Origin: Alphaproteobacteria bacterium
GTDB lineage: Bacteria > Pseudomonadota > Alphaproteobacteria > Rickettsiales > JAIXRX01
Direction of reading: 5' to 3'
Length of the DNA: 41,866 nt
Assembly: GCA_027485005.1 (NCBI GenBank)
Contig: JAIXRX010000035.1
Location: 1 to 41,866 of the forward strand
The notes beneath the pieces were generated by a model. That model worked only from the letters and a program-made list of their open reading frames with translations. It was not told where the DNA came from and made no database searches. The position numbers and the translations under genes were made by a program. Shown here one piece after another: positions 5,134 to 37,595 of this stretch (positions within the stretch are counted from its first letter, which is position 1; each line of letters opens with the position of its first letter).

Positions 5134-5138
5134 ACTGT
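5134..5138. repeat. Target-site duplication ACTGT (copy flanking the phage right end)
   Basis: The pentamer is identical to 37591-37595 and directly abuts the TG terminus. Confidence 0.8.
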
Positions 5139-5183
5139 TGTAGCGCGACACTTAGTTTGTCATGACACGACACTTAGTTTGTC
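5139..5183 (+). repeat. Phage right-end transposase-binding repeats (two tandem sites, 22-bp phasing)
   Basis: TGTAGCG-CGACACTTAGTTTGTC is followed by ATGACA-CGACACTTAGTTTGTC. The identical 16-nt core occurs at 5146-5161 and 5168-5183. Confidence 0.75.
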
Positions 5184-5200
5184 CTAAGTGCCTGCGCCAC

Positions 5201-5944
5201 TTAAACCTCCATTAATTCCTGCTTTAATGGTTCCTCAAGATGCCCCAAAAGGTCGCCTTGGCGATACGCATCCTCAATGCGCTTACATGCCATATCAAAG
5301 TAGCGCTCATCTAGCTCGATGCCGATAAACTTTCGGCCCATCAGTGCGCACGCCACTCCAGTGCTTCCACTGCCCATAAAAGGGTCAAGCACCGTGTCGC
5401 CGACGTTCGTGGAGTGAGCCACCATTCCCTTTAAAAGGGGCAGCGGTTTTTGATGTGGGTGGGTCTCGGCCGTATGCTGCGGAATGGAAAAGCGCTGCAC
5501 ATCTGAGAAGTCTTTGCGGCGATAGGTAGGCTTGCCTTTTTCTAGCACCAGGATGATCTCATGTGCCGGACGGAAGTCGCTTCCTAGCTTCATGCCGTTT
5601 TTATCCCACACAACACTATGGCGCAGCTGCAGGTTCGAATAGCGGGCAATATAGGCTCGCAGGAAGTCCTGATGCTTCCAGTTGCTAAAGTTATACACCG
5701 TCGCGTTTTTCCGCAGGCAATGATAGACACCGCGAAGCATCGCACAATTCATCAGGGGATCGGCGTTGTTAGCTATGGTCTTATCAAACGTGCCATACCC
5801 AACATCTGCGCCGTCACCATAAGGTGGATCAGTGATCACGCAGTCCACGCGCTCGATGCGTGGTAGCTGTTCAAGGCAGTCCCCCATGTAAAGAGTGCAA
5901 TCACCAATAATTTCTTTTCTTGTTTTCATGTTCTTTTTCTCCAT
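5201..5944 (-). CDS. Orphan DNA methyltransferase, beta-class N6-adenine/N4-cytosine type (start may be Met6 at 5929)
   Basis: Motif IV (VITDPPYG) lies N-terminal and motif I (LDPFMGSGSTG) C-terminal, with HPHQKPLPLL between them. No adjacent restriction gene is present. It is the last gene before the phage end, in the position of Mu mom. Confidence 0.85.
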   Translation of the reverse strand: MEKKNMKTRKEIIGDCTLYMGDCLEQLPRIERVDCVITDPPYGDGADVGYGTFDKTIANNADPLMNCAMLRGVYHCLRKNATVYNFSNWKHQDFLRAYIARYSNLQLRHSVVWDKNGMKLGSDFRPAHEIILVLEKGKPTYRRKDFSDVQRFSIPQHTAETHPHQKPLPLLKGMVAHSTNVGDTVLDPFMGSGSTGVACALMGRKFIGIELDERYFDMACKRIEDAYRQGDLLGHLEEPLKQELMEV

Positions 5945-6043
5945 AATCCGTCCACCCTGTCAGGGTGGTGGGTTGGCCTGAATCGGCCGGTTCAGATCAT
6001 GCGAGGTCTTGACTCGCGGTTTGGGGCGTTACAGCGCCTCAAA
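5945..6043 (-). promoter_or_regulatory. Highly structured leader/control region upstream of the methyltransferase
   Basis: Stem-loops CCACCCT-GTC-AGGGTGG (5952-5968) and GCGAG-N7-CTCGC (6001-6017), a 16-bp near-palindrome TGAATCGGCCGGTTCA (5979-5994) and a composite hairpin at 6018-6043. Confidence 0.4.
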
Positions 6044-6060
6044 CCCCGCCCAACGCGGGG
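6040..6060 (-). terminator. Candidate intrinsic terminator after the 4-TM gene
   Basis: On the minus strand, CCCCGC-GTTGG-GCGGGG is followed by TTTG, four nt after the stop codon. The U-tract is short. Confidence 0.5.
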
Positions 6061-6064
6061 AATT

Positions 6065-6466
6065 CTAGATACTTAAAATGGCAGGAATGAAAGCGCAGAC
6101 TGGTGCTGTAAGAAGCAGCGCCAGCAGCAGCTCTTGCTGACGGCGCTCACTCAAAAAAGCCCAGCGATGATGCTGGCAATACCCCACGATCCATGTAGCC
6201 ACGATGCCTATAGGCAGTGGATAGGCTGCCTTCACAGCAGCTAGGCTGCCAACCCCACGGATATAATCCAACTCGGCGCGTGCATGGGTGCCACGCCGGA
6301 AGCACACCCACCATGCCAGCGCAAATGGAATAAACTGAGCACCGCAGATAACCCCGACCGCTGCCGCCTGTGCCAAAATAATAATAGGCTTTTGGAGCTT
6401 GTCAGCCCCATGGCATACAGAAGCAATGGCTGCAATAATGGTGAATATAAGTATGCTGATCATCAA
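6065..6466 (-). CDS. Small integral membrane protein (about 4 TM), unknown function (phage cargo)
   Basis: It has four hydrophobic segments and no recognisable catalytic motif. It sits between the fibre module and the methyltransferase and has its own terminator. Confidence 0.6.
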   Translation of the reverse strand: MMISILIFTIIAAIASVCHGADKLQKPIIILAQAAAVGVICGAQFIPFALAWWVCFRRGTHARAELDYIRGVGSLAAVKAAYPLPIGIVATWIVGYCQHHRWAFLSERRQQELLLALLLTAPVCAFIPAILSI

Positions 6467-6472
6467 TGCGCT

Positions 6473-6865
6473 CTATTCAGAAGGGGATGTAGTTTTCAGG
6501 CCTTGCCCGGCCAACAATCTCGCGCGCAGGGCCTTTTTTTCTTCCAAAATGTCACGGTTGCGCGGGTGCAACTTTGCCACGTCAAAACCAGTTGCTTCCC
6601 AATGATCTTCCAGTGAACGGGGCAAGTAAATGTCGAGCTCTTTTAAACGCGCTTTTTCTTTTAGACCAGGCCAACCCGCCGGATACTGGTCAATAAAGAC
6701 CTGCTGCAGCAACTCTTCGCTGGCAATTTTCGTGGGTATATTTCCTCTCTCAACCCATGCTTTAAATGCAGGATTTCTATTAGAGACGTAGGCTGCTTCA
6801 GCACTTGACCAAAGCTTATTTTCAATGCCAGCAACAAGCCAGTACCAGGAGGTAGGGTTAAACAT
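6473..6865 (-). CDS. Hypothetical protein; possible tail-fibre assembly/accessory protein (by position only)
   Basis: The ORF is tightly packed directly downstream of the tail-fibre gene. I recognise no motif in it. Confidence 0.45.
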   Translation of the reverse strand: MFNPTSWYWLVAGIENKLWSSAEAAYVSNRNPAFKAWVERGNIPTKIASEELLQQVFIDQYPAGWPGLKEKARLKELDIYLPRSLEDHWEATGFDVAKLHPRNRDILEEKKALRARLLAGQGLKTTSPSE

Positions 6866-6879
6866 AAGCTATTTCCTTT

Positions 6880-8154
6880 CTATGTATATTGGCCGCCAGT
6901 TGCAGTGCTACCTGCAGTACTGCCGGGGAAAAATGTTGTGCCCGCGCCATTCACATTAATGACGGCATTAGAGGTGACGGAATGTCGCGAGCCAGTTACT
7001 GCTGAACCGGTAAAGCTTGTAGCGGGGGTATCTAACATTGAGCTCCCTGTAGAGAGAGCAAACGCAGTAACAACTATAGCTGTTGAGACTGTCACCAATA
7101 TTGCAGCAGATTCCGTGATAAATGAACCGCTGCCAGCGCGTAGATGATAACTTGCATTGCCGCTAATCGTGTATGCCGCAGTCCTGATAATCTTACCGCC
7201 ATTAGATGCTAACATATGCTCGCCGGAACAAGCGCCGAAGTTCATACCAGCCCCTACGACTATGCGTCCCCCCTGATCCGCTTGTAGTGCCGGACCAGAT
7301 AGGTTAGAGGCCTTATAGTTCTGGACTTGAATCGAGCAGATTGAAGAAGCGTAAATCACACCAATCGTAGTATTGGCCGCACCGTTGCCATTAACGATTA
7401 TACCGCCGCCAATGAAAGGGTTGGTGATGGAAGCGCCAGCGAAGGTTCCTGAGCCCACATTAATGGTGGCATTGTATCCACCTCCATCATACTTCGAAGT
7501 CAGAACATCAATGGCCTTTTGTACTGTAAGCCATGGTGCGCCCACGCTTCCATCGCCCGTACTATCATTGCCGGTGGTGGTGACATAAAACGTTGTGTTG
7601 GCAGTTAATTGCTTTCGCTCTGTTGGAGATGATCCCAAAGGAGAACCAGTGGCTCGATGATAACCCACGCACTGCCAGTTACCAGCCGAGATGCGGACAA
7701 ATTCAGCCATATCCCCCGCTACCGTCACGATATTAGCGCCAGTTGGCAGAATCAAGGATGTAGCGTTATGGGTCAGCGTCAACACACCAGCAAATTTAAC
7801 CCAAACGTGATCGTATTTTGTGCCGGTTCCAAGAGAAGTGATTGTTGTGGTACCGGTGACTGTTATGAAATCGCTATCGGCAGCTCCGATGTTTGTAGTT
7901 GCAGCGGAGGCAATGTTTGTACCTTGGGCTCTTAGACGGTTGCCAGCAATAATGGCAATTGCGTCACGCAGTTGTGTGAGCGTCTCTTCGTCAGGCGTTA
8001 ATCCTGCAGCAGCAATAACCGCCAGAATCTCGCGCTGCGGGTGTTCAATGGCGCGGGCATCGGGGATTGAACCTTTTATTCCTGCACCAAGATTGCCATT
8101 ACTATATGAGGCATTGGCATCACCTGGTTGGTCAACGGGCTGATAATATTTCAT
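6880..8154 (-). CDS. Tail fibre protein
   Basis: The conserved phage-fibre N-terminus (MKYYQP..., SYSNGNLGAGIKGSIPDARAIEHPQREI) is followed by a Gly/Thr/Ala-rich repetitive beta-type C-terminal part. The gene follows the baseplate genes. Confidence 0.8.
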   Translation of the reverse strand: MKYYQPVDQPGDANASYSNGNLGAGIKGSIPDARAIEHPQREILAVIAAAGLTPDEETLTQLRDAIAIIAGNRLRAQGTNIASAATTNIGAADSDFITVTGTTTITSLGTGTKYDHVWVKFAGVLTLTHNATSLILPTGANIVTVAGDMAEFVRISAGNWQCVGYHRATGSPLGSSPTERKQLTANTTFYVTTTGNDSTGDGSVGAPWLTVQKAIDVLTSKYDGGGYNATINVGSGTFAGASITNPFIGGGIIVNGNGAANTTIGVIYASSICSIQVQNYKASNLSGPALQADQGGRIVVGAGMNFGACSGEHMLASNGGKIIRTAAYTISGNASYHLRAGSGSFITESAAILVTVSTAIVVTAFALSTGSSMLDTPATSFTGSAVTGSRHSVTSNAVINVNGAGTTFFPGSTAGSTATGGQYT

Positions 8155-8159
8155 GGCTA

Positions 8160-8759
8160 TTAAACTCCTTCATAACCGATAGTTAAATGTGTGTGAGCGG
8201 GCTTGAGCTTCTGGAAAATGCAGGCCAAATCATCCGCCTGTCGCCAATCAAGCAAATGCTGATCGAGGGTTGATTGGCCGCAATGCAAGTAAAGAGGCTT
8301 TGCGTCTGGAACATTCACCTTCCAGTAAAAGCGGACATGATGACCTTCGCTTAAAATGTCTGTACCAACACTGCTGATACCGCACATAAATGGGCGGTAT
8401 TCATCAATGGTGATGTCGTAACCAAGGGTTGCGGCCAGATCGATAAAGAACTGGCGGGATTGTCCACCAACACGCGTGTATTTAGTAACGACGGCGGCGA
8501 CACGTTCGGGCAAGGTATCTGCTAATATCGAGCAGCTATCTGGCAAGCCAAGCGCATCTTCCCAGTCCTCCAGCAGCTCAGAAACAGTGGTAGGTATGGC
8601 CTCGCGGATGATAACATCCACACGCTGGTGAATAAAGGCTAGCTCAGATGCAATCACTGATAGCGCCGCCAGCATGTCTTTTTCCTGCGCTGGCGTCCAT
8701 GCTTGGCCGGGCGGTAATAACTGTATCAGCTGGTCAAGGTAGCCGCTTCTATCCATCAC
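8160..8759 (-). CDS. Mu gp48-like baseplate/tail protein (DUF2313, YmfQ-like)
   Basis: Size and position after the baseplate J-like gene fit. The LLPPGQAW motif is typical of this family. Confidence 0.7.
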   Translation of the reverse strand: MMDRSGYLDQLIQLLPPGQAWTPAQEKDMLAALSVIASELAFIHQRVDVIIREAIPTTVSELLEDWEDALGLPDSCSILADTLPERVAAVVTKYTRVGGQSRQFFIDLAATLGYDITIDEYRPFMCGISSVGTDILSEGHHVRFYWKVNVPDAKPLYLHCGQSTLDQHLLDWRQADDLACIFQKLKPAHTHLTIGYEGV

Positions 8760-9820
8760 AGCGCCCCAAACGTAATGTTGCCGATAGTCGTGATATCGCC
8801 AAAGTCACGAGTGACATTGGCGCTGGGTGATACCAACGCATGGTCATGCTCACCGATGGCGATGGAGATAACTTCACGGATATGGGAAAGTAGAAGGGTG
8901 CCGCCCGGAATGGACTCGCGGCGAATCAGGTCTTCCAGCTCTGCCTGAATGGCGGTGCGGACGGCCAGCGTGTTTGGAGATATATTGATTTCAAAATCCA
9001 GCGCCACAGGCGTAGGAGCTGCCACAACAGCATCGGCCGTCGCTGGTCGCTGCACATCAATATGGTTTTGCACCAGCTCTACTTCGGGTGCCGATGGAAT
9101 AATGGTGCCTACCTTCTCATCCATGACAAATAGGAGATACACCGACCCGACGCCGAGTTGGCTTGGATAGACCCACGCACGGGTAACGCCCGCGATTTCC
9201 TTGGCCCACATTTCATAGTCGGCCGCATTGCCACCATGAGGCGGGGTTTGCCAGCGCGCTATAATTCGGCCGCGCCATGATGTCTCAGCATCTTCAATAT
9301 CCACCCCGCCGCTTAAACCATCTTCACCAACAATCACCGTGGATTGCACGCCTGGCACAGGTGAGGTAATGGTAAGCGTAGCACCGTCCACTGCATTGCC
9401 CGCTGCGCCAGAAACAACGGCCGTTACATCGCCAGTACCAACACCACCAGAAATAGTCACATCAGCATCCAGTGTATATTCCTGGCCATTGCTATGTCGC
9501 AGTGAGGTGCCAGCCGGAATTGTGCTGCCGTTGGTGCCTGTAAAATCTACCGCGCCGATGGCATGAGCGGCCTCTCGACGATCCACTTTCCAAACTTGGG
9601 CATGAAGTGGCAACCACTCCACATCGCAAGTGGTTGGCAATATCTGACGGGTGACATATTCAATATAGCCTTCCATCTGGTAGGATGCCATGGCGATCAT
9701 GCGTGCCAGCACATCCTCTACGGAAAAGCGCAACGGCGCTTCACCACTGCCAAAGGCAATGGCGATTTCTGCGCGCAGACGCTGGAGTGTTTCTTGCGGT
9801 AAAGAGCGATTATATGGCAT
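8756..9820 (-). CDS. Baseplate J-like protein (Mu gp47)
   Basis: Synteny and length fit. I chose the start at 9820 because AGGAGG lies 6 nt upstream; the track start at 9862 would overlap gp46 by 53 nt. Confidence 0.75.
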   Translation of the reverse strand: MPYNRSLPQETLQRLRAEIAIAFGSGEAPLRFSVEDVLARMIAMASYQMEGYIEYVTRQILPTTCDVEWLPLHAQVWKVDRREAAHAIGAVDFTGTNGSTIPAGTSLRHSNGQEYTLDADVTISGGVGTGDVTAVVSGAAGNAVDGATLTITSPVPGVQSTVIVGEDGLSGGVDIEDAETSWRGRIIARWQTPPHGGNAADYEMWAKEIAGVTRAWVYPSQLGVGSVYLLFVMDEKVGTIIPSAPEVELVQNHIDVQRPATADAVVAAPTPVALDFEINISPNTLAVRTAIQAELEDLIRRESIPGGTLLLSHIREVISIAIGEHDHALVSPSANVTRDFGDITTIGNITFGAL

Positions 9821-10268
9821 AGACACCTCCTGCCTGGACGGTCGTTTCAAAATACCCACCATCAGGAAGTCCTAGGCGGATAAGCATATCCAAACGACCA
9901 CGGCTGCTCCATTGCGCCTCAACATCAATGGTGATGACGTGCCCGTCTTCCACCATCCATTCCAGCGCCTCGCGGGCATAGAATATGGCGCGCTGGCGGG
10001 TTTCTTCTGTTTGTTTTTCACGCTCCAATAGCCATAGGCGCGAGCCGATACGCTGTTGCTGATCAAAAGCATCGCCTGCCCAGCCACGGCGGTCAGGTGG
10101 CACCGGGCCATTCTTGGTTGGCACGGGCAAAGCATCATCGACATCAGCGCGACGGTCAGTTAGCAGGCTAATAATCACTGCCGTTTCCAAGCCTTTTTCA
10201 GCCACCAGTTGGCCTGCATCATTGCGCGCAAGATCAATGCCACCATCAGCCATAGGGATCAGCTTCAT
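9810..10268 (-). CDS. Mu gp46-like baseplate protein (GP46 family)
   Basis: The sequence shows GP46-family features (LLTDRRA..., WAGD..., GSRLWLLEREK) and the synteny fits. Confidence 0.75.
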   Translation of the reverse strand: MKLIPMADGGIDLARNDAGQLVAEKGLETAVIISLLTDRRADVDDALPVPTKNGPVPPDRRGWAGDAFDQQQRIGSRLWLLEREKQTEETRQRAIFYAREALEWMVEDGHVITIDVEAQWSSRGRLDMLIRLGLPDGGYFETTVQAGGVYAI

Positions 10269-10846
10269 GCGCCGCCTCCCATCAACTGATTAGGCTCTTC
10301 AGTGTTGCCACTATTTGTTTCAGGGTGCGTGTGATTATTATAAACTTCACGCATTTCACTCATGCGCTGACCACCATCATCTGCCCGGTCGATAATTTCC
10401 CCAGTGCATTCCAGCAGTGGAGTCTCTAAACGCACCTTCGTCGTGGCTTTAATGACGAGAGTATCTGTATTCAGCTCAAGCACGCGGCCACGCTTAAAAT
10501 GCAGATAGTCTCCCTCATCCGTGTAATCAGCCACTTCGCCAGGGAGCAAACCAGTTTTGCGGTAGCGCGGATCGTCGGCGCTGATCACCACTGGGTGATC
10601 GCGGCCACCACCAAGGAAAAGCACCAGCGCTTGTGCGCCGGGAAGTGGCACGCTGCTGCGGCCATATTCTTGGACACGCTCTACATCCTCTTTAATCTCA
10701 GAAGACAGCACCTCAAGCTGGACGAGCTGGCGGCGGCCAGCATCATTGATGGCAAGTAGAACGGCGCGACCGATTGCCAACCCTACGGCATTGCGGGCGG
10801 CCTCAGTAGCATTTTGGATGCGCTGGCGAAGATTAGTCATTGTCAT
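10265..10846 (-). CDS. Baseplate assembly protein V-like (Mu gp45)
   Basis: The V/gp45-like core (VQEYGRSSVPLPGAQALVLFLGGGRDHPVVI) is present. The start was moved to Met39 so that it abuts the stop of the P-like gene. Confidence 0.75.
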   Translation of the reverse strand: MTMTNLRQRIQNATEAARNAVGLAIGRAVLLAINDAGRRQLVQLEVLSSEIKEDVERVQEYGRSSVPLPGAQALVLFLGGGRDHPVVISADDPRYRKTGLLPGEVADYTDEGDYLHFKRGRVLELNTDTLVIKATTKVRLETPLLECTGEIIDRADDGGQRMSEMREVYNNHTHPETNSGNTEEPNQLMGGGA

Positions 10847-11939
10847 CCGCCCATACAGTAGTTGCGCCAGAGCCAGAGGCATTGCTATTTGTGCTGCCAT
10901 CATCGCTGTCGCTGTTTGCCTTGGTGTCGATGTCAAAGGCTTCTGGTAAGGCCAAATCAAGACGAGTGTTGGTGCCTTGTGCGCCGCGACTGAATTCTAC
11001 TGCAACAATCAACATATCGCTGGCAATACCAGCAATAGGATCGGTCACGCTTACTAAGGTGTTTGGCCGCCATAAAACACTGTCGGCGGCATACCAGCCA
11101 TGCACGACATAACTCGCTTTTGTGCCGCGTGCGCGGTCGGCTTTACGCTCCCAAAGTGCGCGTTCTTTTAGAGTGCCACTGTATCCTTGGTTTTCACCCA
11201 CCAGCACTTTCGGACGATAACGCGTGACTTCGCCATCTTCCACGCGGCCTTCACCACCCGCCATTTGTTTCGCTTCCGTGGTGCCGTCGAGTGATTCTGC
11301 CTGACCCTTAACCACATAAAGACTATGGCGCTGGGTAGCATCGACCGTCATTTCACCAGTCAGGATATTTTGGCCAAAAATCAGTGCCCCGGCACTGCGT
11401 TCAGACGCTGGGCGCGTTAACACCAACCCACCAATGCCATCAGATACTGGCAGCACCCCGTGTGCACGGCATGCGCGGTCAATAAAATCAAAGGCAGTTT
11501 CACCCGGCTGTATTGCCAAACGCTTGATCGTAGGCGCGGGATTTAACTCGCTTTTAACGGTAATTTTAAAAGGCTCTACTATCTTGCGAATGACAGCATC
11601 CAGCGGCATATTGTTATATTCAAACGGCCCTTTTACGGTAGCGGCGCAGTCAATGAGATCGCCTACCTTGTCGCGCCCGCTGATGCTTAGGGTAACAGTA
11701 TCTGCCGAGTAGCTGACGTTTTTGCTATCGATCCACCCAATCAATACTGGCGCATTATCGATTTCAACATGCACAGATCGGCCGGGCTGGATTTGTGGAA
11801 TTGTGCCATCTGACATTTGACGCATCAGGCTGACATTAAACTCGCCTGACATGCATGTCAGGTCACGGCGGATACTGATTTCTTCCCAACCAAAATATAG
11901 ATCGCCGCCAAGGCGTAGGCCAAAAGATGCGTTAATCAT
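10833..11939 (-). CDS. Mu gpP-like tail protein (gp44, late-control-D-like)
   Basis: Length and position between the N-like and V-like genes fit Mu gpP. Confidence 0.7.
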   Translation of the reverse strand: MINASFGLRLGGDLYFGWEEISIRRDLTCMSGEFNVSLMRQMSDGTIPQIQPGRSVHVEIDNAPVLIGWIDSKNVSYSADTVTLSISGRDKVGDLIDCAATVKGPFEYNNMPLDAVIRKIVEPFKITVKSELNPAPTIKRLAIQPGETAFDFIDRACRAHGVLPVSDGIGGLVLTRPASERSAGALIFGQNILTGEMTVDATQRHSLYVVKGQAESLDGTTEAKQMAGGEGRVEDGEVTRYRPKVLVGENQGYSGTLKERALWERKADRARGTKASYVVHGWYAADSVLWRPNTLVSVTDPIAGIASDMLIVAVEFSRGAQGTNTRLDLALPEAFDIDTKANSDSDDGSTNSNASGSGATTVWADDND

Positions 11940-13161
11940 TGAGCAACACCTCCATCGGACGTGGCGCTACAAAGCCGGGATGTGCTACGCGGTTACGCTT
12001 TGCGATATCGGTGGCGCGCTCAAAAATAATAGATGAATCATCACCATAAAGACGGTTGGCCACGGCCAGTGATGGACGCACCACGCTACTGGCAACATTG
12101 ACTGTGCGAGGTAGGCGGCCAATCCGCGTTGTTACATCTTCAGTCACGGCTACCAGCATATCTGTGCTTGCCTGCCAGGCTGGCATGTAACCAGCCGTTA
12201 ATTGACGCTCACGCAATTCCTGCAGGCTATCACTCATCATATTGCGAGTGGACAGTGCTTGCTCGCGGCTTTCATATTGTACATAGCGTGCAACACCACC
12301 TGCCGCTGCAAGCGCAGAGGTTTTGACCAAGGTAGAAACAGCATCCGCATTGGATATCATCGCAGCACGGCTGGGGCTGGTAGGCGTGATATTGGTCTGC
12401 ACATCGTGATTGGCTACTTGCACCAATGCTCGCATGGTTTGCAAAGGGCTGTCAGTGTTGGTCGGCGCAGCAGGCGTGCCAATAATCGGAGTAATACCTG
12501 GGCGCATATTGCTGACGATACCGCTAAATAACGCCGCTACTTGGTCACCAGTGGTACCTCTCAGGCTGGTGAAGTTTGAAGGATTAAGGCGATATGAAAG
12601 GCCGCTGTAGCGGAAGGCATCTTGTGCAAATGTCAGGAACTCACCCAGCACTCCAAGCCCATGCAGATCGACAAAACCAGGCAAAATACCGCTGGCCAGT
12701 GCACTGTTGAAATCCACTGATGCCAAATCAAACATACGACCAGACATCAAGCTCATCTGACGGCCAGTATCGCCCAAAACAGATAGTCCTGCCGTGGAGC
12801 TATAACGCTCAAAAGAAACGCTAAACCCTACTTCACCAATCGTATCTTTTGAGTGAGCGCGGCGCATTTCTTTAACCACCACCTGCACCTCTCCATAATG
12901 CGGATGCAGTAACGTGCCGGGGCCTTTTTGCAGAAAGGCCGCTTCCAGTGCCGCCGCACGCGCAACAAAACCACCGCCGATAATGACGGCCTGAATGTTG
13001 AATGCCAACGGGAGCTGGCCTAAATCTTCATGGAAAGGTTCATCTCGGCCGGGGGCTTGCTTGGTAACGATACGGCGGCCAGAGTTGGTGTCGTCGCTCT
13101 CCATATGAAACGACAATCCTCGAAAAGATGCGGGCCGTAACTCTGCGCGAAAGTCTGGCAT
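11932..13161 (-). CDS. DNA circularisation protein N-like (Mu gp43)
   Basis: The N-terminal signature ASFRGLSF...GRRIV...PGRDEPFHEDLG is typical of the Mu N family. Confidence 0.8.
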   Translation of the reverse strand: MPDFRAELRPASFRGLSFHMESDDTNSGRRIVTKQAPGRDEPFHEDLGQLPLAFNIQAVIIGGGFVARAAALEAAFLQKGPGTLLHPHYGEVQVVVKEMRRAHSKDTIGEVGFSVSFERYSSTAGLSVLGDTGRQMSLMSGRMFDLASVDFNSALASGILPGFVDLHGLGVLGEFLTFAQDAFRYSGLSYRLNPSNFTSLRGTTGDQVAALFSGIVSNMRPGITPIIGTPAAPTNTDSPLQTMRALVQVANHDVQTNITPTSPSRAAMISNADAVSTLVKTSALAAAGGVARYVQYESREQALSTRNMMSDSLQELRERQLTAGYMPAWQASTDMLVAVTEDVTTRIGRLPRTVNVASSVVRPSLAVANRLYGDDSSIIFERATDIAKRNRVAHPGFVAPRPMEVLLND

Positions 13162-15715: not shown

Positions 15716-15744
15716 AATTTTTTGCCTTTCTCAAGGAAGAGTGA

Positions 15745-29056: not shown

Positions 29057-29091
29057 AAACGCGATGTTACGCGCTCACGCGAAGGCATGGC

Positions 29092-29111
29092 ATTGTAGCG
29101 GTAGCTACAAT
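29092..29111 (-). promoter_or_regulatory. Late-promoter activator dyad ATTGTAG-N6-CTACAAT (P_lys candidate)
   Basis: The 7-bp arms are perfect, and the dyad is followed by GCC and then exactly 32 nt to the endolysin ATG. It lies in the 81-bp gap right after the Mor-like gene. Confidence 0.6.
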
Positions 29112-29137
29112 TTCAATAATAACAGGGGCGGGTTATT

Positions 29138-29512: not shown

Positions 29513-29513
29513 C

Positions 29514-30204: not shown

Positions 30205-30804
30205 TTACACCGCCGCAAAATCTAGAGTGATGGAGTTCCAAGGGGACAGCAGATTAGTGCGGCGATAGAACCGCACATATTGCTTGGTAGATACCACGCG
30301 CATCGAATCATTGATCGCCTGCATGGCCTGCGTCCACTGCTCGTCCTTGATATCCAAGCGGCGTAGACCGAGAATGTTGCCACGATTGACGCGGCCTTCT
30401 TTGTCTACCGCAAAGGCATGATTGACGATGGTGAGGATGGTGGGATTGACACCGCCGCTGTGAGCTTTGATGCATTCGTCAATCAGCCCCTTGGCTATTT
30501 GCAGCTCAGGGCCAAAAGCGATTCCGTCTGCTACCTGCACCTGCACTTTACTCAGGCCATCGTAGGATTGCAGAGTGAGGTTGCCTTTTTTGCCACCCTT
30601 AAGCAGCCCGTATTTTTCAGACAGCAATGCTAAAAAGGCGTCAATGTCATCAAATGCGGCCGCCTTGAAATAGGTAAGTTCGGCATTGAGCTTGGTGGCC
30701 TGACCAAACAGCTGCGCCACAAGCTGGTCTTCCAGCTTGTGCTCCGGCTTCACCATTTCTACTGGTACCAGATGGCCTTTATCGTTTGTCATATGTGTTG
30801 TCAT
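30205..30804 (-). CDS. DUF3164-like Mu-early-region protein
   Basis: It is 199 aa and resembles the conserved DUF3164 family found in transposable phages. It is not Gam-like. Confidence 0.55.
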   Translation of the reverse strand: MTTHMTNDKGHLVPVEMVKPEHKLEDQLVAQLFGQATKLNAELTYFKAAAFDDIDAFLALLSEKYGLLKGGKKGNLTLQSYDGLSKVQVQVADGIAFGPELQIAKGLIDECIKAHSGGVNPTILTIVNHAFAVDKEGRVNRGNILGLRRLDIKDEQWTQAMQAINDSMRVVSTKQYVRFYRRTNLLSPWNSITLDFAAV

Positions 30805-31097
30805 GCGTTGTTCCTTTCAGTCTGGTTATTGGCTCGGCGCTGGCGCTCAAGGCGGATGTCGTACACATTTGGCCCTTCATGGATAAGAGAGGGGTCGATG
30901 TTGATTTTGCCTTCCAGCTGCTCAACCACTTTGCTGAGGTCTCCTAGGAAGGCGATGATGCCAACCCATTCATCGAGTGGGATGGACAGGTTCATCTCCT
31001 CATGTCGCAAATCTCGCGGCGGCATGTAACGGGACATGATTTGCTGGACACGCTTAATTGCGCCAGGAACGGTACGATTAGGTGATGTATTATTCAT
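30801..31097 (-). CDS. Hypothetical early protein (98 aa)
   Basis: The ORF is tightly overlapped with its neighbours in the early operon. I recognise no motif. Confidence 0.5.
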   Translation of the reverse strand: MNNTSPNRTVPGAIKRVQQIMSRYMPPRDLRHEEMNLSIPLDEWVGIIAFLGDLSKVVEQLEGKINIDPSLIHEGPNVYDIRLERQRRANNQTERNNA

Positions 31098-31470
31098 GAC
31101 GTTTCCTCCCGCAGGTGTTATGCGCGCATCGACGGCATTCCCGAAAGAGTGCGACCGCCTGGTGATTGGCTGGTGAATAGGGTGAAAGCTGATGCTTCAT
31201 GCAGATAGGCCCATCAATCATGCCCAAAATCGGGCACTGCACTTGCTGGGCGTTAAAGGCCGCTTCAACGCGTGCTTGAACCTGCATTAAATCGCCTGGG
31301 TAACGATTTTTAAGCACCTGATTGACCAGGCTCGCCGAGCGACCAATCTTGCGGGCGGCGTCCGCCTGCGTGTGCTGATCTGCATACTCAGCCAATCGCA
31401 TCACCCATTCAGGTAAGGTTGGCACCCAATGCTCTTTTGCCAGAGCCATGGCGCTTACAACTGGCTTCAT
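31090..31470 (-). CDS. HTH DNA-binding protein with Cys-rich C-terminal part
   Basis: It has an HTH (QADAARKIGRSASLVNQVLKNRY) followed by C-x10-C ... C-x2-C-x4-C. An ATGA overlap links it to the upstream gene. Confidence 0.6.
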   Translation of the reverse strand: MKPVVSAMALAKEHWVPTLPEWVMRLAEYADQHTQADAARKIGRSASLVNQVLKNRYPGDLMQVQARVEAAFNAQQVQCPILGMIDGPICMKHQLSPYSPANHQAVALFRECRRCAHNTCGRKRHE

Positions 31471-32024
31471 GCTGCACCTCCACGCCAAACTATTTTTTCG
31501 GCGTTAGGATCGAAAACCTGTTGCTTGCGTTTGTTGACCTCTGGGGCAAGCGGCCCACTGTTGCGGCCTGGCAGAAAGATATATGTGGCACCTTTGCCGG
31601 GATACGACTCCTGCGCCACCTTGATATATCCTGACAGGCGAAGGTACTTTAAATACTCTTTAGCCATTCCCAACTCACAGAATGCGACCAGCGCCACATA
31701 GCGTGCATCGAACTGCTGCGCACCGAACACTCTTAGGGCTGACCAGATGCGCTGGCGCGCAGACGGCTCCATTGGTTTTCCATCTTTGTCAATTCGCGGC
31801 GCGAGCTGACCGACATCGCGCACCAGAGTATAGACATTGGGTTCGGCGATCTTGCCGATTGTCTTTTTCTCCAGATACCCATGCTCTGCCAAGCGATCCA
31901 GATATGATCGGATGCTTGATGTTTCGTGGCCTGTGAGCACATAAATGTCTCGGCAGGTGAAGGTGCGTAGCTTGCGGATTGCAACCCACACCCCTTGTCG
32001 TGATTTAATATGACGTACCCACAT
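31467..32024 (-). CDS. Hypothetical protein with two winged-helix-like repeats
   Basis: There are two similar segments (SSIRSYLDRLAEHGYL and MAKEYLKYLRLSGYI). I chose the start at 32024, just after the MuB stop. Confidence 0.55.
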   Translation of the reverse strand: MWVRHIKSRQGVWVAIRKLRTFTCRDIYVLTGHETSSIRSYLDRLAEHGYLEKKTIGKIAEPNVYTLVRDVGQLAPRIDKDGKPMEPSARQRIWSALRVFGAQQFDARYVALVAFCELGMAKEYLKYLRLSGYIKVAQESYPGKGATYIFLPGRNSGPLAPEVNKRKQQVFDPNAEKIVWRGGAA

Positions 32025-32026: not shown

Positions 32027-32776
32027 CTAGAATCTCCGAGCTTGAGGTGGGGTAGCGGAATGAAGAGGGCGCTTGCCCCATTCTTTCAGACCAACTTCCG
32101 CCCACTCATGCCCTGCGGCCTCGTCATAAATACGATCTAGGTTGGTGACAATACGGCGCACGCTACCATGCGCATCGTTCACGATCTGCTCCAGAAGGTC
32201 GTCTTTGATCGTAATGGCAGGGACAAAATGCTTGGCCAGAATGCGGCCATCTTCCATATTGGCAGGCACCGCTTGCGCCCAACGTAATACGCGGCCATGG
32301 AAGCGCTCCCAGCGGCGTAGCTTTTGTGGCAAGGCCTCTTCACCGATCAACACGATGGGAGCTTTGCTTTGCTCATAAATGTCGCGCACCAGCTCCACCA
32401 GATTGCGGTCAACCAGGTTGTCGGCTTCGTCGATCAACAGCGGTCGTTGACTAAGCGCCAGTTCCTCGCTCACTTGATCTGTCATCGCTGAAATTGTCTT
32501 GGCGGGTTGGATGCCCAGCTGCAGCAGCACAGCTTCTAGGAAGGCTTTCTTTGTCCAGACACTGCGCACCTCAACATAGGTTGCGCCGTATTTAGCGGCG
32601 ACAGATGCAACAGCAGTTGATTTTCCGAAACCTGATGGGCCGCTAAATGTAACGATACCCGGAAGATGTGCCGCACGGTTTATGGTGTGGAGCAGCAGCT
32701 CGTTCAGGATGGTGATGTTGCGCAATGGCGCAATCCCGCCAGTGCTTGGATTGACCTTTTCTTTTTTTGATGTCAT
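32027..32776 (-). CDS. MuB-like AAA+ ATPase (DNA transposition protein B)
   Basis: It has Walker A (GPSGFGKST) and Walker B (LLIDEADNL) and lies directly downstream of the transposase gene. Confidence 0.85.
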   Translation of the reverse strand: MTSKKEKVNPSTGGIAPLRNITILNELLLHTINRAAHLPGIVTFSGPSGFGKSTAVASVAAKYGATYVEVRSVWTKKAFLEAVLLQLGIQPAKTISAMTDQVSEELALSQRPLLIDEADNLVDRNLVELVRDIYEQSKAPIVLIGEEALPQKLRRWERFHGRVLRWAQAVPANMEDGRILAKHFVPAITIKDDLLEQIVNDAHGSVRRIVTNLDRIYDEAAGHEWAEVGLKEWGKRPLHSATPPQARRF

Positions 32777-32801: not shown

Positions 32802-34937
32802 TTACATGGGTGGGACATCCAGCGTTGCATCGCTGGGTGTTTCATTCAGCAGCATCTCTGCTGCTGGAGCGGCGGTTAGTTCATCCGCATCTATTTCTTC
32901 TGGCCACCACGCACGGTCGCTGACACGGCCAATCCACTTACGATCACGGTCGCTAATGCCTTCGCCACGGGCCACACTGGCAGCAATGGCGCGCACGCGC
33001 TTGGCCCATAACTCACGGTCACTAAACGCCACCTCTTGATCATGCACGGTGGCTTGGCGGGCGGGCTTTTGAAGTGGCAATATTTCTACGGCACGGGATG
33101 CTTCATCCATTGCATGGGTGCTGAACTCTTCCACGCGCTGCGGGAATGACAGCACCTTGGTGTCAGCGTGTAGCGCCAGCAACCCATCGGCCAGTTCCTT
33201 TTTGTTCAATCCACGGCGGATACGGTTCAGCTCTTTCTTGCTTTCGCTGATCAGATTGGCCTGCGCCGCTTTTAGCTGCGCAGCGAACTGCATCGGATCG
33301 ATACCAATGGTTTGCGGGTTAATCGCCTCAAACAGGTAATTGCTGTTTTCATCGAAAGCATAGACCCGGCCAAGGTCAGCCGGGTCATGCCGCACCAGCA
33401 CGTCTTTCCCAATATACGGGAGCAACGCTTCGCTGATGTAAGACAGGCCATCCACGCGGATGCCTGATTTCGTAATGCGGCGCATGCCACCGCCTGCCGC
33501 GATAGGGGCAAGCAGCAGATCAAGGGCGCGCTCGCTAGCGGGTTTTTGTACTGGATGCGGCCATTGCGCGGCGCGCTCATTGGGTGACATCTTCAAGGCG
33601 GAATGCACCGCATTGCCATATTTACCAGCTGCCCAACTATCGAGAGCAACTTGCAATTCTTGAGCGGTCATGCCCACTGAGAATGCAGCAGCATCGCTCT
33701 CACCCATGCGGGACGCGAAGTCTTTTTGCTCACGGATACGTTGGCGGTGCGCCACGCTATGGCCAGAGAAACCCGGCAGGATGGCCATCAGGTCGCGCTG
33801 CATGGTGCCAATCACGCGCTCAACAAATGGCTTTTTCTCTGGCGAGTATGGCGGTGAAATCTCTTGCAAAATGCCCACGCCAGCCAGTGCCATTGTAAAG
33901 CGGCGGCTCACAAAGTCAGCGCCATTATCGGTCTTGATCGTTTCTGGTTTGCCCCATGCCATAATGGCCTTACGCACCAGCAGCAGGGAAGCCTCGGTTT
34001 TCGCGGTCTTGCTCACACTAAACATGGCGCGGCGGCTCCATACGTCGATCAGCGCATAAATGCTGTAACGGCCATCGCTGCAAATCGCATCGGCGGGCGA
34101 GGCATCGATCTGCCACATCTGGTTGAGGCCAGTGATATGTGCATCTGCATCACCCACGGCCACCTTGTGGGTGTTTTTGTATTGCCCAGGTGAAGTCACA
34201 GCCATGAACAGTGCGCTGTTCTCCTGTTTCCATTCCACGATATGGCGCTCAAAGGCGCGCAAGGATGGCAGCGGGAAACACCGCCCATTAACATCCAGCA
34301 TCGTACCAAACTTCATGCGCACAAAATCGCGCAGATGCCCGCCTTTATAATCGCGGTTATCAGTCAGCAGGGCAGCAACATACTTGGCCACAGCACCACC
34401 GCAGGCGCGGCTTAATATGCTGGTGCCTTTACGTTTGCCATAGCGACCGCCCAGCAACTCTGGCTGCGTGGTGGCGGCTTTGCACCAGCGGTGCAGCGTG
34501 CGGGTGCAAAGCTCCGGCACCACACAATAAGGCATTTTATGAGGTGTCATAGCGCGTTCCACGCGGTACTGCGCAAGAAATATCTCCGCACCATGATGGG
34601 TCGATATCCCATTCAGGCGGCAGAAATTTTGGTAGCTTGTCACAATCATAAGCTTGGCCAACTGGCGGCCTTGCTGGCCGTTTGGCTTTGTTTCTTCAAG
34701 CTGCACTGCCGCCATTTGAAGCTTCGGCGTTTCCGCCGCCACCTTTTGCAAAATGGCATGCTGCAATTTTGCAGGCAACATGGTCAGCGGATAGATACGG
34801 CCACCGCCTTTGCCTTCACGTTTAATAGATGGCCAGCCTTCTTTTTTGGCGCGGATGTTTATCCTTTGCTCTGTACCTGGCAAAACATCTAGATTTAACC
34901 CAGCTAACTCTCGTGCGGTGTAGTGCTCCCTGATCAT
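32802..34937 (-). CDS. Mu-type DDE transposase A
   Basis: It has an N-terminal Mu-like DNA-binding domain (YTARELAGL) and a DDE core (WQIDASPAD, IKTDNGADF, PFVERVIGT). I chose the start at 34937 (SD GGGGAG, ATGA overlap with the upstream ORF). Confidence 0.9.
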   Translation of the reverse strand: MIREHYTARELAGLNLDVLPGTEQRINIRAKKEGWPSIKREGKGGGRIYPLTMLPAKLQHAILQKVAAETPKLQMAAVQLEETKPNGQQGRQLAKLMIVTSYQNFCRLNGISTHHGAEIFLAQYRVERAMTPHKMPYCVVPELCTRTLHRWCKAATTQPELLGGRYGKRKGTSILSRACGGAVAKYVAALLTDNRDYKGGHLRDFVRMKFGTMLDVNGRCFPLPSLRAFERHIVEWKQENSALFMAVTSPGQYKNTHKVAVGDADAHITGLNQMWQIDASPADAICSDGRYSIYALIDVWSRRAMFSVSKTAKTEASLLLVRKAIMAWGKPETIKTDNGADFVSRRFTMALAGVGILQEISPPYSPEKKPFVERVIGTMQRDLMAILPGFSGHSVAHRQRIREQKDFASRMGESDAAAFSVGMTAQELQVALDSWAAGKYGNAVHSALKMSPNERAAQWPHPVQKPASERALDLLLAPIAAGGGMRRITKSGIRVDGLSYISEALLPYIGKDVLVRHDPADLGRVYAFDENSNYLFEAINPQTIGIDPMQFAAQLKAAQANLISESKKELNRIRRGLNKKELADGLLALHADTKVLSFPQRVEEFSTHAMDEASRAVEILPLQKPARQATVHDQEVAFSDRELWAKRVRAIAASVARGEGISDRDRKWIGRVSDRAWWPEEIDADELTAAPAAEMLLNETPSDATLDVPPM

Positions 34938-35116
34938 GAGCGCTCCCCATGTGTTTTGGCAGCGCGCAAGTCCTGCAAGCGGGCATAGGTGCTTTCCACG
35001 CAGCCATCGCAAATATGGAAAGACGCAGCGCTCTTAAATAAAAACTCCACCTCTGAATAAGGTTTATGGCAGCACGAGCAGCCGGGAGGGGTGGCAGGAA
35101 GAGGCATGTTAATCAT
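34934..35116 (-). CDS. Stand-alone ClpX-type C4 zinc-finger protein (60 aa)
   Basis: CSCC-x19-CDGC with ...SEVEFLF...FHICDGCVE parallels the ClpX N-domain (CSFCGKSQHEV...VYICDECVD). A strong SD (GGAGG) is present, and its stop overlaps the transposase start. Confidence 0.7.
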   Translation of the reverse strand: MINMPLPATPPGCSCCHKPYSEVEFLFKSAASFHICDGCVESTYARLQDLRAAKTHGERS

Positions 35117-35600
35117 GTTGCACCTCCACTACAAAACGGCTGGCCTCTGCGCATTTTTGCAGGGCGGCATCCATACTGCCAGCATACCAGAGGGTTTGCT
35201 GCGCGAGGCGGTCATATATTTCCCAGGCAGTACCAGCGCCCTGAGCTGCCCGCTTATTGCGGCGTATCAATGTCGGGGGAGTATTCCCGCCTGACGCTTG
35301 GGAAGGAAGGCGCTGAATCATCACTTCCAGCTTTTTCACACGGTCTTCAAGACCAACTTTTTCACGCATTAAAGCCGCCGTATCCTCAACGCTTTTTAGG
35401 CGCTCGGTCAGTGCAATCAGATCATACTGTGCATCGTCTGGTTTATTGTCGATCAACTCATCCAGCATCGATTGAAGCTGAACGCCTCGGTTATCCTGAT
35501 CCAATACAGCACGCGCCAGCACATGGTTGGTGCGTTGATATTTGTTCAGCTCATTTTGAAAGAGCGAAAGTTGTTGCCCATAGGCGCTATCCTTTTTCAT
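35109..35600 (-). CDS. Hypothetical coiled-coil early protein (163 aa)
   Basis: It has SD GGAGGG and a TAATG overlap with the upstream ORF. Its composition is helical and heptad-like. I recognise no motif. Confidence 0.55.
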   Translation of the reverse strand: MKKDSAYGQQLSLFQNELNKYQRTNHVLARAVLDQDNRGVQLQSMLDELIDNKPDDAQYDLIALTERLKSVEDTAALMREKVGLEDRVKKLEVMIQRLPSQASGGNTPPTLIRRNKRAAQGAGTAWEIYDRLAQQTLWYAGSMDAALQKCAEASRFVVEVQHD

Positions 35601-35884
35601 TACACCCTCCGGTCTTCTTCCATGGCCACCCACTTGCCATAGCCAGTCATGGCCACAGGCACGGCGGCCAGAATCAATGTGGTTAAAACGATGATTAAAG
35701 CCGCATTGAAGGCCTTGCTCGCCAACAGGCGCTGCATGGTGCGCTCACGCTTTAAGGCGCGGCACTCAATGTGGCGTTTGGTGATTGTCGGTGTGGCGAG
35801 CCTGCAAGCCGCCACACCGTCTCCCCACGCTTGGAGGGCACTGTCAGGGTGGGTGGGGAGAAACTGGATGCAATGGCGGTTCAT
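35600..35884 (-). CDS. Hypothetical small protein with C-terminal TM segment
   Basis: It is 94 aa with a TM segment (FNAALIIVLTTLILAAVPVAM) and overlaps the ner stop. Confidence 0.45.
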   Translation of the reverse strand: MNRHCIQFLPTHPDSALQAWGDGVAACRLATPTITKRHIECRALKRERTMQRLLASKAFNAALIIVLTTLILAAVPVAMTGYGKWVAMEEDRRV

Positions 35885-36189
35885 GCCGCACCTCGCGCAT
35901 TTAATTTTTGGGATTGTGTTTGGCGGCTTATTGTTCTAGCTTTGCGCGCAGTTCTTGTGCCAATGCGCTGACCCTGCTTGTCATACCAAGCAGGCCAGAG
36001 GCTGTGCAGCGAGACACCAAGGAATTTAGCAATTGCATGTTGAGCCGCAGGAAAAGGTGTAGTCATTGCAATGTGACATGCGTCTTTGCAAAGCCCTGCA
36101 TCAATTGCTATTGCGCGCATAGTAGTACCGCGTTTGCGAACTGCGGCCTTGATGTCTTCCCTATGCCAGCCTTTTTTGTTTTGTGACAT
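35881..36189 (-). CDS. ner: Ner-like early transcriptional regulator
   Basis: GWHREDIKAAVRKRGTTMRAIAIDAGL...HAIAKFLGVSLHSLWPAWY closely parallels the Mu Ner/Nlp signature. The SD is GGAGAG. Confidence 0.85.
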   Translation of the reverse strand: MSQNKKGWHREDIKAAVRKRGTTMRAIAIDAGLCKDACHIAMTTPFPAAQHAIAKFLGVSLHSLWPAWYDKQGQRIGTRTARKARTISRQTQSQKLNARGAA

Positions 36190-36380
36190 GAACTCTCCAT
36201 TATGACGGGTTACAGCCCGTTTTTTTGGCGTTGTTGAATTAAGCTAACTAAATGTGTGTTCGCACAATAAAGCGGATATAGCAACATTAAAAAGCGATGT
36301 TTTGCGAATGTCCGTTTTTTTATACGAATTGATGTGACTTTTCGGACACGCCCTGATAGAGGGCGGGCAAAGTATTGGAT
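36190..36380. promoter_or_regulatory. Divergent repressor/early control region (operators, Pe/Pc; probable transposition enhancer by analogy to Mu)
   Basis: This AT-rich 190-bp gap lies between the divergent ner and repressor genes. It contains the inverted repeats TGTG-N4-CACA and AACAT-N10-ATGTT and a hairpin plus T7 run at 36205-36227. Confidence 0.5.
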
Positions 36381-37175
36381 ATGATGGTGTTTAAAGACCG
36401 ACTAAAAATAGCTATGAAAGAGGAATCTGTACTTGGCTTCGCAAAAAAAAGCGGGCTGAGTGAGGGGGCTATTCGGCAATACCTCAAAGGTAGTGAGCCG
36501 GGGCTTGATAAGGTCATAGCAATTGCTGCTGCAGCCGGGGTATCAGCGGCATGGTTAGCCACAGGCGAAGGTAAGCCTGACTCTAGCTATCGCTCGTCTG
36601 CTTTGGCGGATTCTTCTGTGCCCTCGCAATTCAGGGCACAACCATTGCGTAGTAAAGATGGTGAAGAAATGTATCTCTCAATGGCTGCTGCCAATACTTC
36701 TACCATCAAACTGGATAAATCCTCCTATGAGGCAAAAATAAACGAGGTTGATGACACCTCTTCTGTAGCCGTTCCATTACTCAGTATTCATGCGAGTGCA
36801 GGTGGTGGCGCAGCTGTGCTAAGTGAAGAAGGTGATGACTATATACGGTTCAGCGCACGCATGTTGCGAGGCCTTGGCTTGGAACCGCTCCACACATTTG
36901 TAATGCCAGTGCTAGGGGACAGCATGGAGCCGCGTATCCGATCAGGCGAGCTGATGCTTTGTAGTCGTGCGCCGCAACACCTCAAAGGAGCGGACGGCAC
37001 TTACATCGTGCGCCTGGAAGGTGATATATTGGTCAAACGCATCCAGCGACTGCCGGGCGGCAAGGTCGTTGTCTCCTCTGAAAACACAGGTTACAGCCCC
37101 TTTGAAATCATCTTAAATGACGGGGTAGATTTTGCCATTCTAGGCATGGTGCTGGTGGTGTTTCGCAAGGTTTAG
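36381..37175 (+). CDS. CI/LexA-like repressor (XRE HTH plus S24 autopeptidase domain)
   Basis: The N-terminal HTH (GFAKKSGLSEGAIRQYLKG) and the C-terminal S24 motifs GDSMEP (Ser) and VKRIQ (Lys) are present. The track start at 36375 is TTG; the ATG at 36381 or 36384 is more likely. Confidence 0.85.
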   Translation: MMVFKDRLKIAMKEESVLGFAKKSGLSEGAIRQYLKGSEPGLDKVIAIAAAAGVSAAWLATGEGKPDSSYRSSALADSSVPSQFRAQPLRSKDGEEMYLSMAAANTSTIKLDKSSYEAKINEVDDTSSVAVPLLSIHASAGGGAAVLSEEGDDYIRFSARMLRGLGLEPLHTFVMPVLGDSMEPRIRSGELMLCSRAPQHLKGADGTYIVRLEGDILVKRIQRLPGGKVVVSSENTGYSPFEIILNDGVDFAILGMVLVVFRKV

Positions 37176-37199
37176 ATTGCCATCTAAGAGTTCAAGTTA

Positions 37200-37215
37200 G
37201 TGTTTTGCAAAACAC
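37200..37215. repeat. Perfect 16-bp palindrome GTGTTTTGCAAAACAC
   Basis: The sequence is fully self-complementary and lies 25 nt after the repressor stop. Confidence 0.6.
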
Positions 37216-37300
37216 CATAATGCAGACAATAATTATTATATTACTGTGCGTTACATAACTTGAACGCTATCGTGTAACTTGAACGCCAAACGACCCAAAA

Positions 37301-37322
37301 ACACGACACTTAGTTTGTCATG
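37301..37322 (+). repeat. Internal copy of the end-repeat (candidate L3 site), same orientation as the right-end sites
   Basis: In ACACGACACTTAGTTTGTCATG, 37301-37319 is 19/19 identical to 5165-5183, and 37304-37322 is 19/19 identical to 5146-5164. Confidence 0.7.
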
Positions 37323-37567
37323 TTGCTTTGCGCCACTCGCGCCGTAACGCGCAGCAATGCTTGCCTTACGGCACCGCACGCGCCGCGCACGCCCTTATGG
37401 GGCAATCTCTTCTATATTGCTTAAAGCCGCCTTCAAAGTGTCGTGTTGGGTTACACTTGGCCGCGCTGTGTTTTGATGGTGTCACGACACGCCTACGCCA
37501 GGCTCACCGCCGCTGTGCTATCCCATTATATCCCACTTAATACCGCACTATCCCGCCTTGGCTTTAG

Positions 37568-37590
37568 GACATACTAAGTGTCGTTCCACA
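37568..37590 (-). repeat. Phage left-end terminal repeat (L1 site)
   Basis: Its reverse complement, TGTGGAACGACACTTAGTATGTC, matches 5139-5161 at 19 of 23 positions and ends with CA on the plus strand. Confidence 0.75.
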
Positions 37591-37595
37591 ACTGT
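37591..37595. repeat. Target-site duplication ACTGT (copy flanking the phage left end)
   Basis: The pentamer is identical to 5134-5138. Confidence 0.8.

Follow-up and report, generated by a model that had tools for sequence, protein, structure and literature searches.

A Mu-like prophage beside a tRNA-Pro gene in an alphaproteobacterial genome, and the over-representation of its family at tRNA gene flanks

Results

We analysed a stretch of 41,866 bp (hereafter the window), which is one whole contig (JAIXRX010000035.1, assembly GCA_027485005.1) of an alphaproteobacterial metagenome-assembled genome (MAG) of 1.58 Mb in 220 contigs. When its sequence is re-read, it contains a prophage of 32,452 bp that extends from TG to CA at positions 5139-37590. 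Nearly every gene of the prophage is on the minus strand, so that its Mu-type left (c) end is at 37590. The right end is close to a host transfer RNA (tRNA) gene, tRNA-Pro(GGG) (4963-5039, plus strand), the only one that ARAGORN finds in the window, whose 3' end points toward it. This gene is 99 nt from the element and 94 nt from the pentamer that is duplicated at its ends. It is followed by a terminator-like hairpin (5040-5078, plus strand) ending about 55 nt before the target pentamer (the segment 5040-5138 folds with -23.6 kcal/mol, z = -6.4). We consider it very likely that the segment 5139-37590 represents a complete Mu-like transposable prophage of the myovirus type, probably functional, founded by transposition and with a bias towards tRNA flanks.

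Ends and target duplication

Transposition by the DDE transposases of the Mu family gives TG/CA termini and 5-bp target duplications. Read inward, the right end is TGTAGCGCGACACTTAGTTTGTC (5139-5161) and the left end, i.e., the reverse complement of 37568-37590, is TGTGGAACGACACTTAGTATGTC. Of the 23 positions, 19 are identical between the two ends, and the duplicated pentamer ACTGT lies directly outside both of them (5134-5138 at the right end and 37591-37595 at the left end). A previous interpretation of the window (the sequence-only reading) had given these coordinates, this match and these flanks, and they agree with the sequence letter for letter. The match between the ends exceeds what is expected by chance. 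A blind end finder, which pairs TG...CA termini that have the same 5 bp outside them and form an inverted repeat, ranked this pair best in the window (20/25, with 15/25 for the runner-up). A 16-nt core, CGACACTTAGTWTGTC, has four copies with zero mismatches in the window (5146, 5168, 37304 and 37568), all in the terminal regions, and when up to three mismatches are allowed there are six matches, for 0.37 expected from shuffles.

The right end (5139-5183, plus strand) has the terminal TG and two adjacent 22-bp repeats of the transposase-site type, R1 (5139-5161) and R2 (5162-5183), which is the layout of R1-R2 in Mu (Mu ends from AF083977). This layout is the feature that the two right ends have in common: their letters agree at 12 of 25 positions, which does not exceed the agreement of the window's right end with the Mu left end. 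A motif search of the left end (37303-37590, minus strand) gave L1 at the terminus (37568-37590), a half-site around 140 bp further in (37426-37444), and an inverted perfect core (37303-37319). Transposase-binding-type repeats at TG/CA termini characterise Mu-like phages, and these ends are conserved in the 20 relatives described below. The terminus TGTAGCGCG of the right end is kept in 19 of these 20, the other one (G117a) having TGTAACGCG. The general form of the 21 resolved elements is TGT... at the left and TGTAGCGCG... at the right, with one right end in TGTAACGCG. The 20 relatives have analogous ends and each its own perfect duplication, which further sustains the identification of TG/CA ends and of a 5-bp duplication in the sequence-only reading.

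The junctions of a close relative are particularly informative. The MAG contig JANRKD010000001.1 (G041) carries at 8490-41673 a colinear element in which 24 proteins of the window are matched at full length with 48-78% identity. Its ends are TGTCCAACGACAC... and TGTAGCGCGGCAG..., and its duplication is GGCGC: the left junction reads ...AAGGCGC followed by TGTCCAACGACACTTTG, and the right one ...GCCGCGCTACA followed by GGCGC and then ACGAG. The termini and the layout of 22-bp repeats are thus the same, with a different 5-bp duplication. The second site is 139-141 bp inside L1 in all three close relatives. A third relative, JBIISI010000039.1, begins with TGTGCAACGACACTT, and so does a 33,983-bp Logan contig of another, unrelated run (SRR28201394), whose position 1 is the TG of a related left end. 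Such a start would be expected if the flanks were heterogeneous in the sample, by active replication or by packaging, and gives an indirect hint of replicative transposition and of headful packaging with varied host DNA at the ends.

The assembly graph of run SRR16126903 bears on the left junction of the window. The host-side Logan contig starts at position 37590 (AACTGTCATTTG...), the prophage-side contig stops at 37619, and their overlap is exactly 30 nt (37590-37619). If the k-mer length of the Logan assemblies is 31, as we assume, 30 nt is k-1, and a de Bruijn graph is expected to break in this way where another sequence comes in at a shared 30-mer. The empty-site allele that is predicted joins ...CATAAAACTGT to CATTTGACC... 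(i.e., ...CATAAA-ACTGT-CATTTG...); it is the same from 37590 rightwards and departs at 37589. The graph would therefore branch where the empty-site allele diverges, which supports the existence of an empty site indirectly.

On the other side of the element, 91 bp upstream of the real tRNA-Pro gene, there is a 21-nt copy of its 5' end (4870-4890, 20/21 identical to 4961-4981). Logan contigs from two runs end at 4871, which suggests strain variation there.

Gene content

The gene order of the prophage matches that of Mu, as revealed by Pfam and PHROG searches and by the genes called on a Logan contig whose sequence is identical. Close to the left end, a repressor with the domains HTH_3 and Peptidase_S24 (36381-37175, plus strand) is encoded divergently from ner. 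It has the serine motif GDSM, the lysine of the motif VKR and a candidate A-G cleavage site, and it aligns with the catalytic domain of LexA. The S24 domain had been noted in the sequence-only reading, and with it the induction of the prophage by the SOS response is plausible. The early genes (34934-36189, minus strand) are a Ner-like HTH_35 gene (35881-36189), two unknown open reading frames (ORFs) and a 60-aa ORF with a ClpX-type zinc finger. The latter (34934-35116, minus strand) matches the C4 zinc finger family zf-C4_ClpX of Pfam, and its stop codon overlaps the start codon of the transposase. The genes of the transposase A (32802-34937, minus strand) and of the B-like AAA+ ATPase (32027-32776, minus strand) come next. 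They precede a segment (30205-32024, minus strand) with a gene for a 185-aa tandem winged-helix protein right after B, two small ORFs and a DUF3164 gene, as indicated by Pfam, PHROG 2030, AlphaFold2 and Foldseek.

The rest of the element encodes middle, lysis and particle functions, all on the minus strand. Lysis and middle genes (27444-30191) include GemA, a Mor-like activator, lysozyme, Rz and DUF2730 (Pfam and gene calls). They are followed by Gp27, the large terminase, a Mu-type portal and a MuF-like protein with a PBECR2 tail (22302-27442, Pfam). In this head protein (22302-23558, minus strand) PBECR2 is a C-terminal nuclease domain of the barnase/EndoU/RelE-like type, and the same fusion is found in three relatives. 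Next come the protease/scaffold gpI, a virion protein, the major head subunit gpT and the head-tail joining genes Gp36, tail_S and Gp37 (17223-21943, Pfam and PHROG 1731), and then the tail sheath, tail tube, tail assembly chaperone and tape measure (13161-17220, Pfam). The baseplate block (8160-13161, Pfam) has the DNA-circularisation protein N, gpP, Gp45, GP46, Baseplate_J and Gp48. The region 6065-8154 is attributed to the tail fibre (6880-8154, placed by its position after gp48) and two small ORFs (6473-6865 and 6065-6466); it has no family match in Pfam or PHROG, and in the fibre the N-terminal 71 aa alone are conserved in the G041 relative. The last gene of the right end, at the position of com/mom in Mu, encodes an N6/N4 DNA methyltransferase (5201-5944; Pfam N6_N4_Mtase, 7e-33; 78% identical in G041).

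The genes of a Mu-type particle were all found with Pfam (Portal_Mu, F, I, T, Gp36, Gp37, sheath, N, P and Gp45-48). The colinear full-length matches to the relative complete the picture of an intact, Mu-colinear set of core genes, as proposed before. A cryptic or defective prophage, which would no longer transpose or form particles, is quite improbable in our view. In its favour, the sequence comes from a MAG and activity is a prediction from the genes; there is also an ORF-poor gap of 358 bp between F and I, and no holin was recognised by name. Yet the core genes are all full length when compared with a relative that is merely 48-78% identical, both ends and the duplication are intact, and the branching of the SRR16126903 graph at the junction is as if cells with and without the prophage coexisted.

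Transposition genes

The transposase A, 711 aa long when started at the ATG of 34937, has three domains above the Pfam cut-offs: HTH_Tnp_Mu_1 (26.6 bits for a cut-off of 23.3), rve and Mu-transpos_C. When compared with MuA (AF083977), it is 37% identical over 51 aa in the N-terminal DNA-binding domain (E = 2e-4) and 24% identical over 180 aa in a C-terminal stretch. The gene for B (249 aa) starts 25 nt after A, in the A-then-B order of Mu; its product matches AAA_22 (1e-14) and TniB (1e-6) and is 27% identical to MuB over 121 aa of the ATPase core. Among proteins of solved structure, the best sequence matches of A are to TnsB of Tn7-like and CRISPR-associated transposons (7svw and others, E = 4e-11), and MuA is not among the matches with E up to 0.001. 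In the phage database, it is best matched by Rhodobacter phage RC1 and Rhodovulum phage RS1, with 35% identity across 80% of its length. A DNA-level search of deposited phages gave nothing beyond one 46-bp match that resembles chance, and scans of metagenomes and viral contigs gave no relative of the transposase closer than those of the genome collection.

The attribution to the Mu family in the sequence-only reading is therefore apt for the organisation of the genome and the particle genes, and less so for the transposase, whose similarity to MuA is marginal. From these comparisons, the transposase belongs to a separate branch of the MuA/TnsB superfamily, in an element that is Mu-like in organisation and particle genes. 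The element falls outside the genus Muvirus: it has no match to phage DNA, its A and B are marginally similar to those of Mu, it lacks a resolvase/invertase, and a methyltransferase occupies the place of mom.

Location of the related elements

The three close relatives all lie less than 100 bp from a tRNA gene, a different one in each case (Pro, Gly and Asn), and we thus undertook a survey of the family. Elements were sampled by the similarity of transposase A alone, among 400 genomes at the level of the class, in a scan of genome contigs, and among 400 genomes of the order of Mesorhizobium sp. AR07. For each match, the 7 kb upstream of A and the 20 kb around the expected right end were run through the finder of ends and duplications. 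This resulted in 21 elements, including that of the window, all with perfect 5-bp duplications. We excluded the elements that the finder did not resolve (G392, G396, G095a, G095b, G933, G878, G1166, G1197 and G1183). We also excluded seven more for which one end was located by eye beside a tRNA gene (G042, G439, G102, G272, G371, G060 and G117b), because the search had there been prompted by the presence of the tRNA and counting them would bias the result.

We found that 13 of the 21 elements (12 of the 20 relatives and the one in the window) are 18-159 bp from a tRNA gene. The flanks of the 21 elements (221,138 bp) contain a total of 13 tRNA genes, and every one of these is 18-159 bp from the insertion point. 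Ten elements are within 110 bp of the tRNA gene, eight of them on its 3' side. Among the 13, insertions are on the 3' side in 11 cases and on the 5' side in two, and it is more often the right end that faces the tRNA (nine cases) than the left one (four). The survey involves 10 different anticodons, and all the 5-bp duplications differ. As a baseline, 0.2% of the bases and 1.7% of the non-ORF bases in the window's own genome are within 110 bp of the 3' side of a tRNA gene. Were the null rate as high as 7.5%, the binomial probability of at least 13 in 21 would still be 2.7e-10. The family is over-represented at tRNA flanks, and the position of the window's element beside tRNA-Pro is probably not accidental.

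Proximity to a tRNA gene is also what one would see after site-specific recombination at a tRNA-linked att site, in the style of phages with integrases. This is extremely improbable for the element of the window. A six-frame search of the MAG gave no match to PF00589 or PF00239, i.e., no tyrosine or serine recombinase, on the contig of the window, and the tyrosine recombinases and resolvases of the MAG are confined to other contigs. The flanking repeat has just 5 bp, is 94 bp away from the tRNA and is not similar to it, and there is no shared att core. Relatives with different duplications, in both orientations, and at variable distances from genes of 10 anticodons also differ from what an att site would produce. 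The sequence-only reading had excluded an integrase and attributed the position near tRNA-Pro to transposition. Both points hold, given the absence of a recombinase from the contig and the 5-bp duplication, but an incidental position is unlikely when 13 of 21 elements are within 160 bp of a tRNA gene.

Several relatives have peculiar surroundings. Two that are away from tRNA genes, G219 (L093/L094) and G117a (L113/L114), have REP-like hairpins (GTCATTCC...GGAATC) at 65-75 bp from their insertion points. The left end of another (L087, 3604-4871) is 200 bp upstream of the start of the tyrosine-integrase gene of a different mobile element; there, the insertion point of the Mu-like phage is next to an integrative island or within it. 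In G102 (L110, around 3750-3775) and G272 (L121, around 800-830), the end of the element adjoins an 11-13-nt duplicate of the right terminus. The flanks of G371 (L111/L112) differ, AAAAT versus CCAAG, which suggests a rearrangement between copies.

Discussion

That DDE transposition brought the element into the chromosome is indicated by its TG/CA termini and their repeated binding sites, by the pair of A and B, and by the ACTGT duplication. The target was intergenic, 94 bp downstream of the tRNA-Pro(GGG) gene and just past its terminator, and a LexA-like self-cleaving repressor would maintain lysogeny. The survey points to an integrative (lysogenising) step of transposition that would be biased to the flanks of tRNA genes, mostly to their 3' side. 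The replicative step may remain genome-wide, which is what was observed in Mu-like phages of Citromicrobium (PMC12486242).

The chances seem to us evenly balanced that the lineage actively steers its lysogenising transposition to DNA located 20-160 bp from a tRNA gene, whatever its isotype and in most cases on the 3' side, and that it needs neither an integrase nor a TniQ/TnsD selector nor a guide RNA to do so. In that case, the cue would be a general feature of tRNA loci (for instance the conserved structure-forming DNA of the gene, the terminator hairpin or the transcription complex), read by A/B or by a small early protein. On the other hand, insertion could be random, as in Mu, and the neighbourhood of tRNA genes could reflect the survival of harmless insertions, the DNA past a tRNA terminator being dispensable, in the absence of any choice of target. 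We hold this to be rather unlikely. An insertion upstream would harm the promoter of the tRNA, which could explain the 11:2 excess of the 3' side. Against it stand the contrast between the 1.7% of non-ORF bases located within 110 bp 3' of a tRNA gene and the 10 of 21 elements at up to 110 bp (13 of 21 at up to 160 bp), and the existence of other dispensable intergenic DNA, e.g., between convergent genes, which is far commoner yet less used. Furthermore, experimental lysogens of other alphaproteobacterial Mu-like phages are already biased at integration (PMC12486242). The survey is compatible with either active targeting or selection for harmless sites and does not separate them.

Several observations weigh against targeted insertion by a functional prophage. 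Eight of the 21 resolved elements are away from tRNA genes, some of them with ends that hardly differ from those of elements beside tRNA genes, and any bias is therefore not absolute. Among the early ORFs, and with family searches, we identified no phage gene able to read a tRNA gene. Both points are also expected if harmless sites are selected, and this selection could contribute to the pattern, including the preference for the 3' side. The winged-helix protein that follows B is found in D3112-like phages too, which are described as largely random inserters, and it thus cannot by itself explain the bias. The activity of the prophage is deduced from its sequence, the MAG is 75% complete, and the host lineage has no close relative in the genome collection. 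When the joined flanks were searched in that collection as an empty-site allele, they matched only tRNA genes, in 40 relatives.

We considered two specific candidates for the cue and for its reader. No early ORF matches TniQ, and the 185-aa protein encoded after B (31467-32024, minus strand), at the place that TniQ has in Tn7-like elements, was rejected as a TniQ-like selector of tRNA genes. It is a tandem winged-helix protein (AlphaFold2 pLDDT 86) with around 1,100 representative homologues, and it follows B across the whole transposase family. Its homologue in the D3112-like Pseudomonas phages is annotated as a transcriptional regulator. Its Foldseek matches to tauB of TFIIIC have TM-scores of around 0.3 and correspond to a generic tandem winged-helix fold. 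A constant distance between hairpin and target was also rejected: it is around 55-60 nt in the window and in the relative G150 and varies in other relatives.

As in Escherichia phage Mu (Muvirus), the genes follow the order c/ner, A, B, semi-essential early genes, GemA, Mor, lysis, Gp27, terminase, portal, F, I, T, sheath, tube, tape measure, N, P, baseplate and fibre. The element also shares with Mu the TG/CA ends, the two adjacent 22-bp right-end sites, the 5-bp duplication and the contractile tail (here predicted from the genes). It differs from Mu by its smaller genome (32.5 kb versus 36.7 kb), by the lack of Gin or of an invertible G segment in a resolvase search, and by a DNA methyltransferase in place of com/mom. 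Its repressor has an S24 self-cleavage domain, whereas none is annotated for Mu c, which to our knowledge lacks it. Finally, its lineage clusters at tRNA flanks, in contrast to the near-random insertion of Mu. A winged-helix gene after B is shared with RC1, RS1 and other transposable phages of Alphaproteobacteria. RC1/RS1-type phages are described as siphoviruses, whereas the element has a sheath and a baseplate of the Mu type, and its transposase has low identity to theirs.

Other transposable phages are known to have preferred sites. The Citromicrobium phages phiA and phiB make 5-bp duplications and show integrative transposition that is biased in its sites and replicative transposition that is genome-wide (PMC12486242). 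phiA prefers a 40-bp zone in a hypothetical gene and phiB has six hotspots; the section of that paper on integration makes no link between these sites and tRNA genes. The Pseudomonas saltovirus Ab30 is a transposable phage with hotspots at 55-61 bp from hairpin-forming BIME/REP elements, which account for 5% of the replicative events (PMC5977238). The target in the window, about 55 nt past the hairpin of the tRNA terminator, is similar to this, as are the two non-tRNA relatives at 65-75 bp from REP-like hairpins. However, the bias reported here is seen in resident prophages, and the distance to the hairpin varies across relatives. In Burkholderia vietnamiensis, the Mu-like phage vB_BvM-G4P1 was reported next to a tRNA-Arg gene (PMC7354579); this is a single betaproteobacterial case for which no pattern was claimed. 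A search of full texts in an incomplete collection of the literature found no systematic link of Mu-like prophages with tRNA flanks.

The tRNA-homing Tn7-like and type V-K CRISPR-associated transposons are comparable in other ways. The element shares with them a TnsB-type transposase, a weak match of B to TniB, insertion downstream of tRNA genes and a 5-bp duplication. Unlike them, it is a whole phage in which no TniQ/TnsD, TnsA, Cas12k or guide RNA was found, and the lineage varies in its distance to the tRNA (18-159 bp) and inserts in both orientations.

Taken by itself, the prophage is an ordinary addition to the Mu-like phages. It comes from an alphaproteobacterial order that has been little sampled, and it can serve annotation and supply reference end sequences. 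The window provides one clean example, resolved at the base pair, of a clustering at tRNA genes that is family-wide and makes the lineage worth following up. Relatives of the element are carried by cultured hosts, Mesorhizobium sp. AR07 (NZ_CP080525.1), in which the left end of the prophage is 73 bp past a tRNA-Val gene, and Jiella pacifica 40Bstr34. Mu is the textbook case of near-random insertion, and the safe harbour of tRNA genes is otherwise reached by phages with integrases, Tn7-like elements and eukaryotic retrotransposons. If confirmed, a Mu-type lineage with most of its resident prophages next to tRNA genes would reach this safe harbour by a further route, one based on a transposase.

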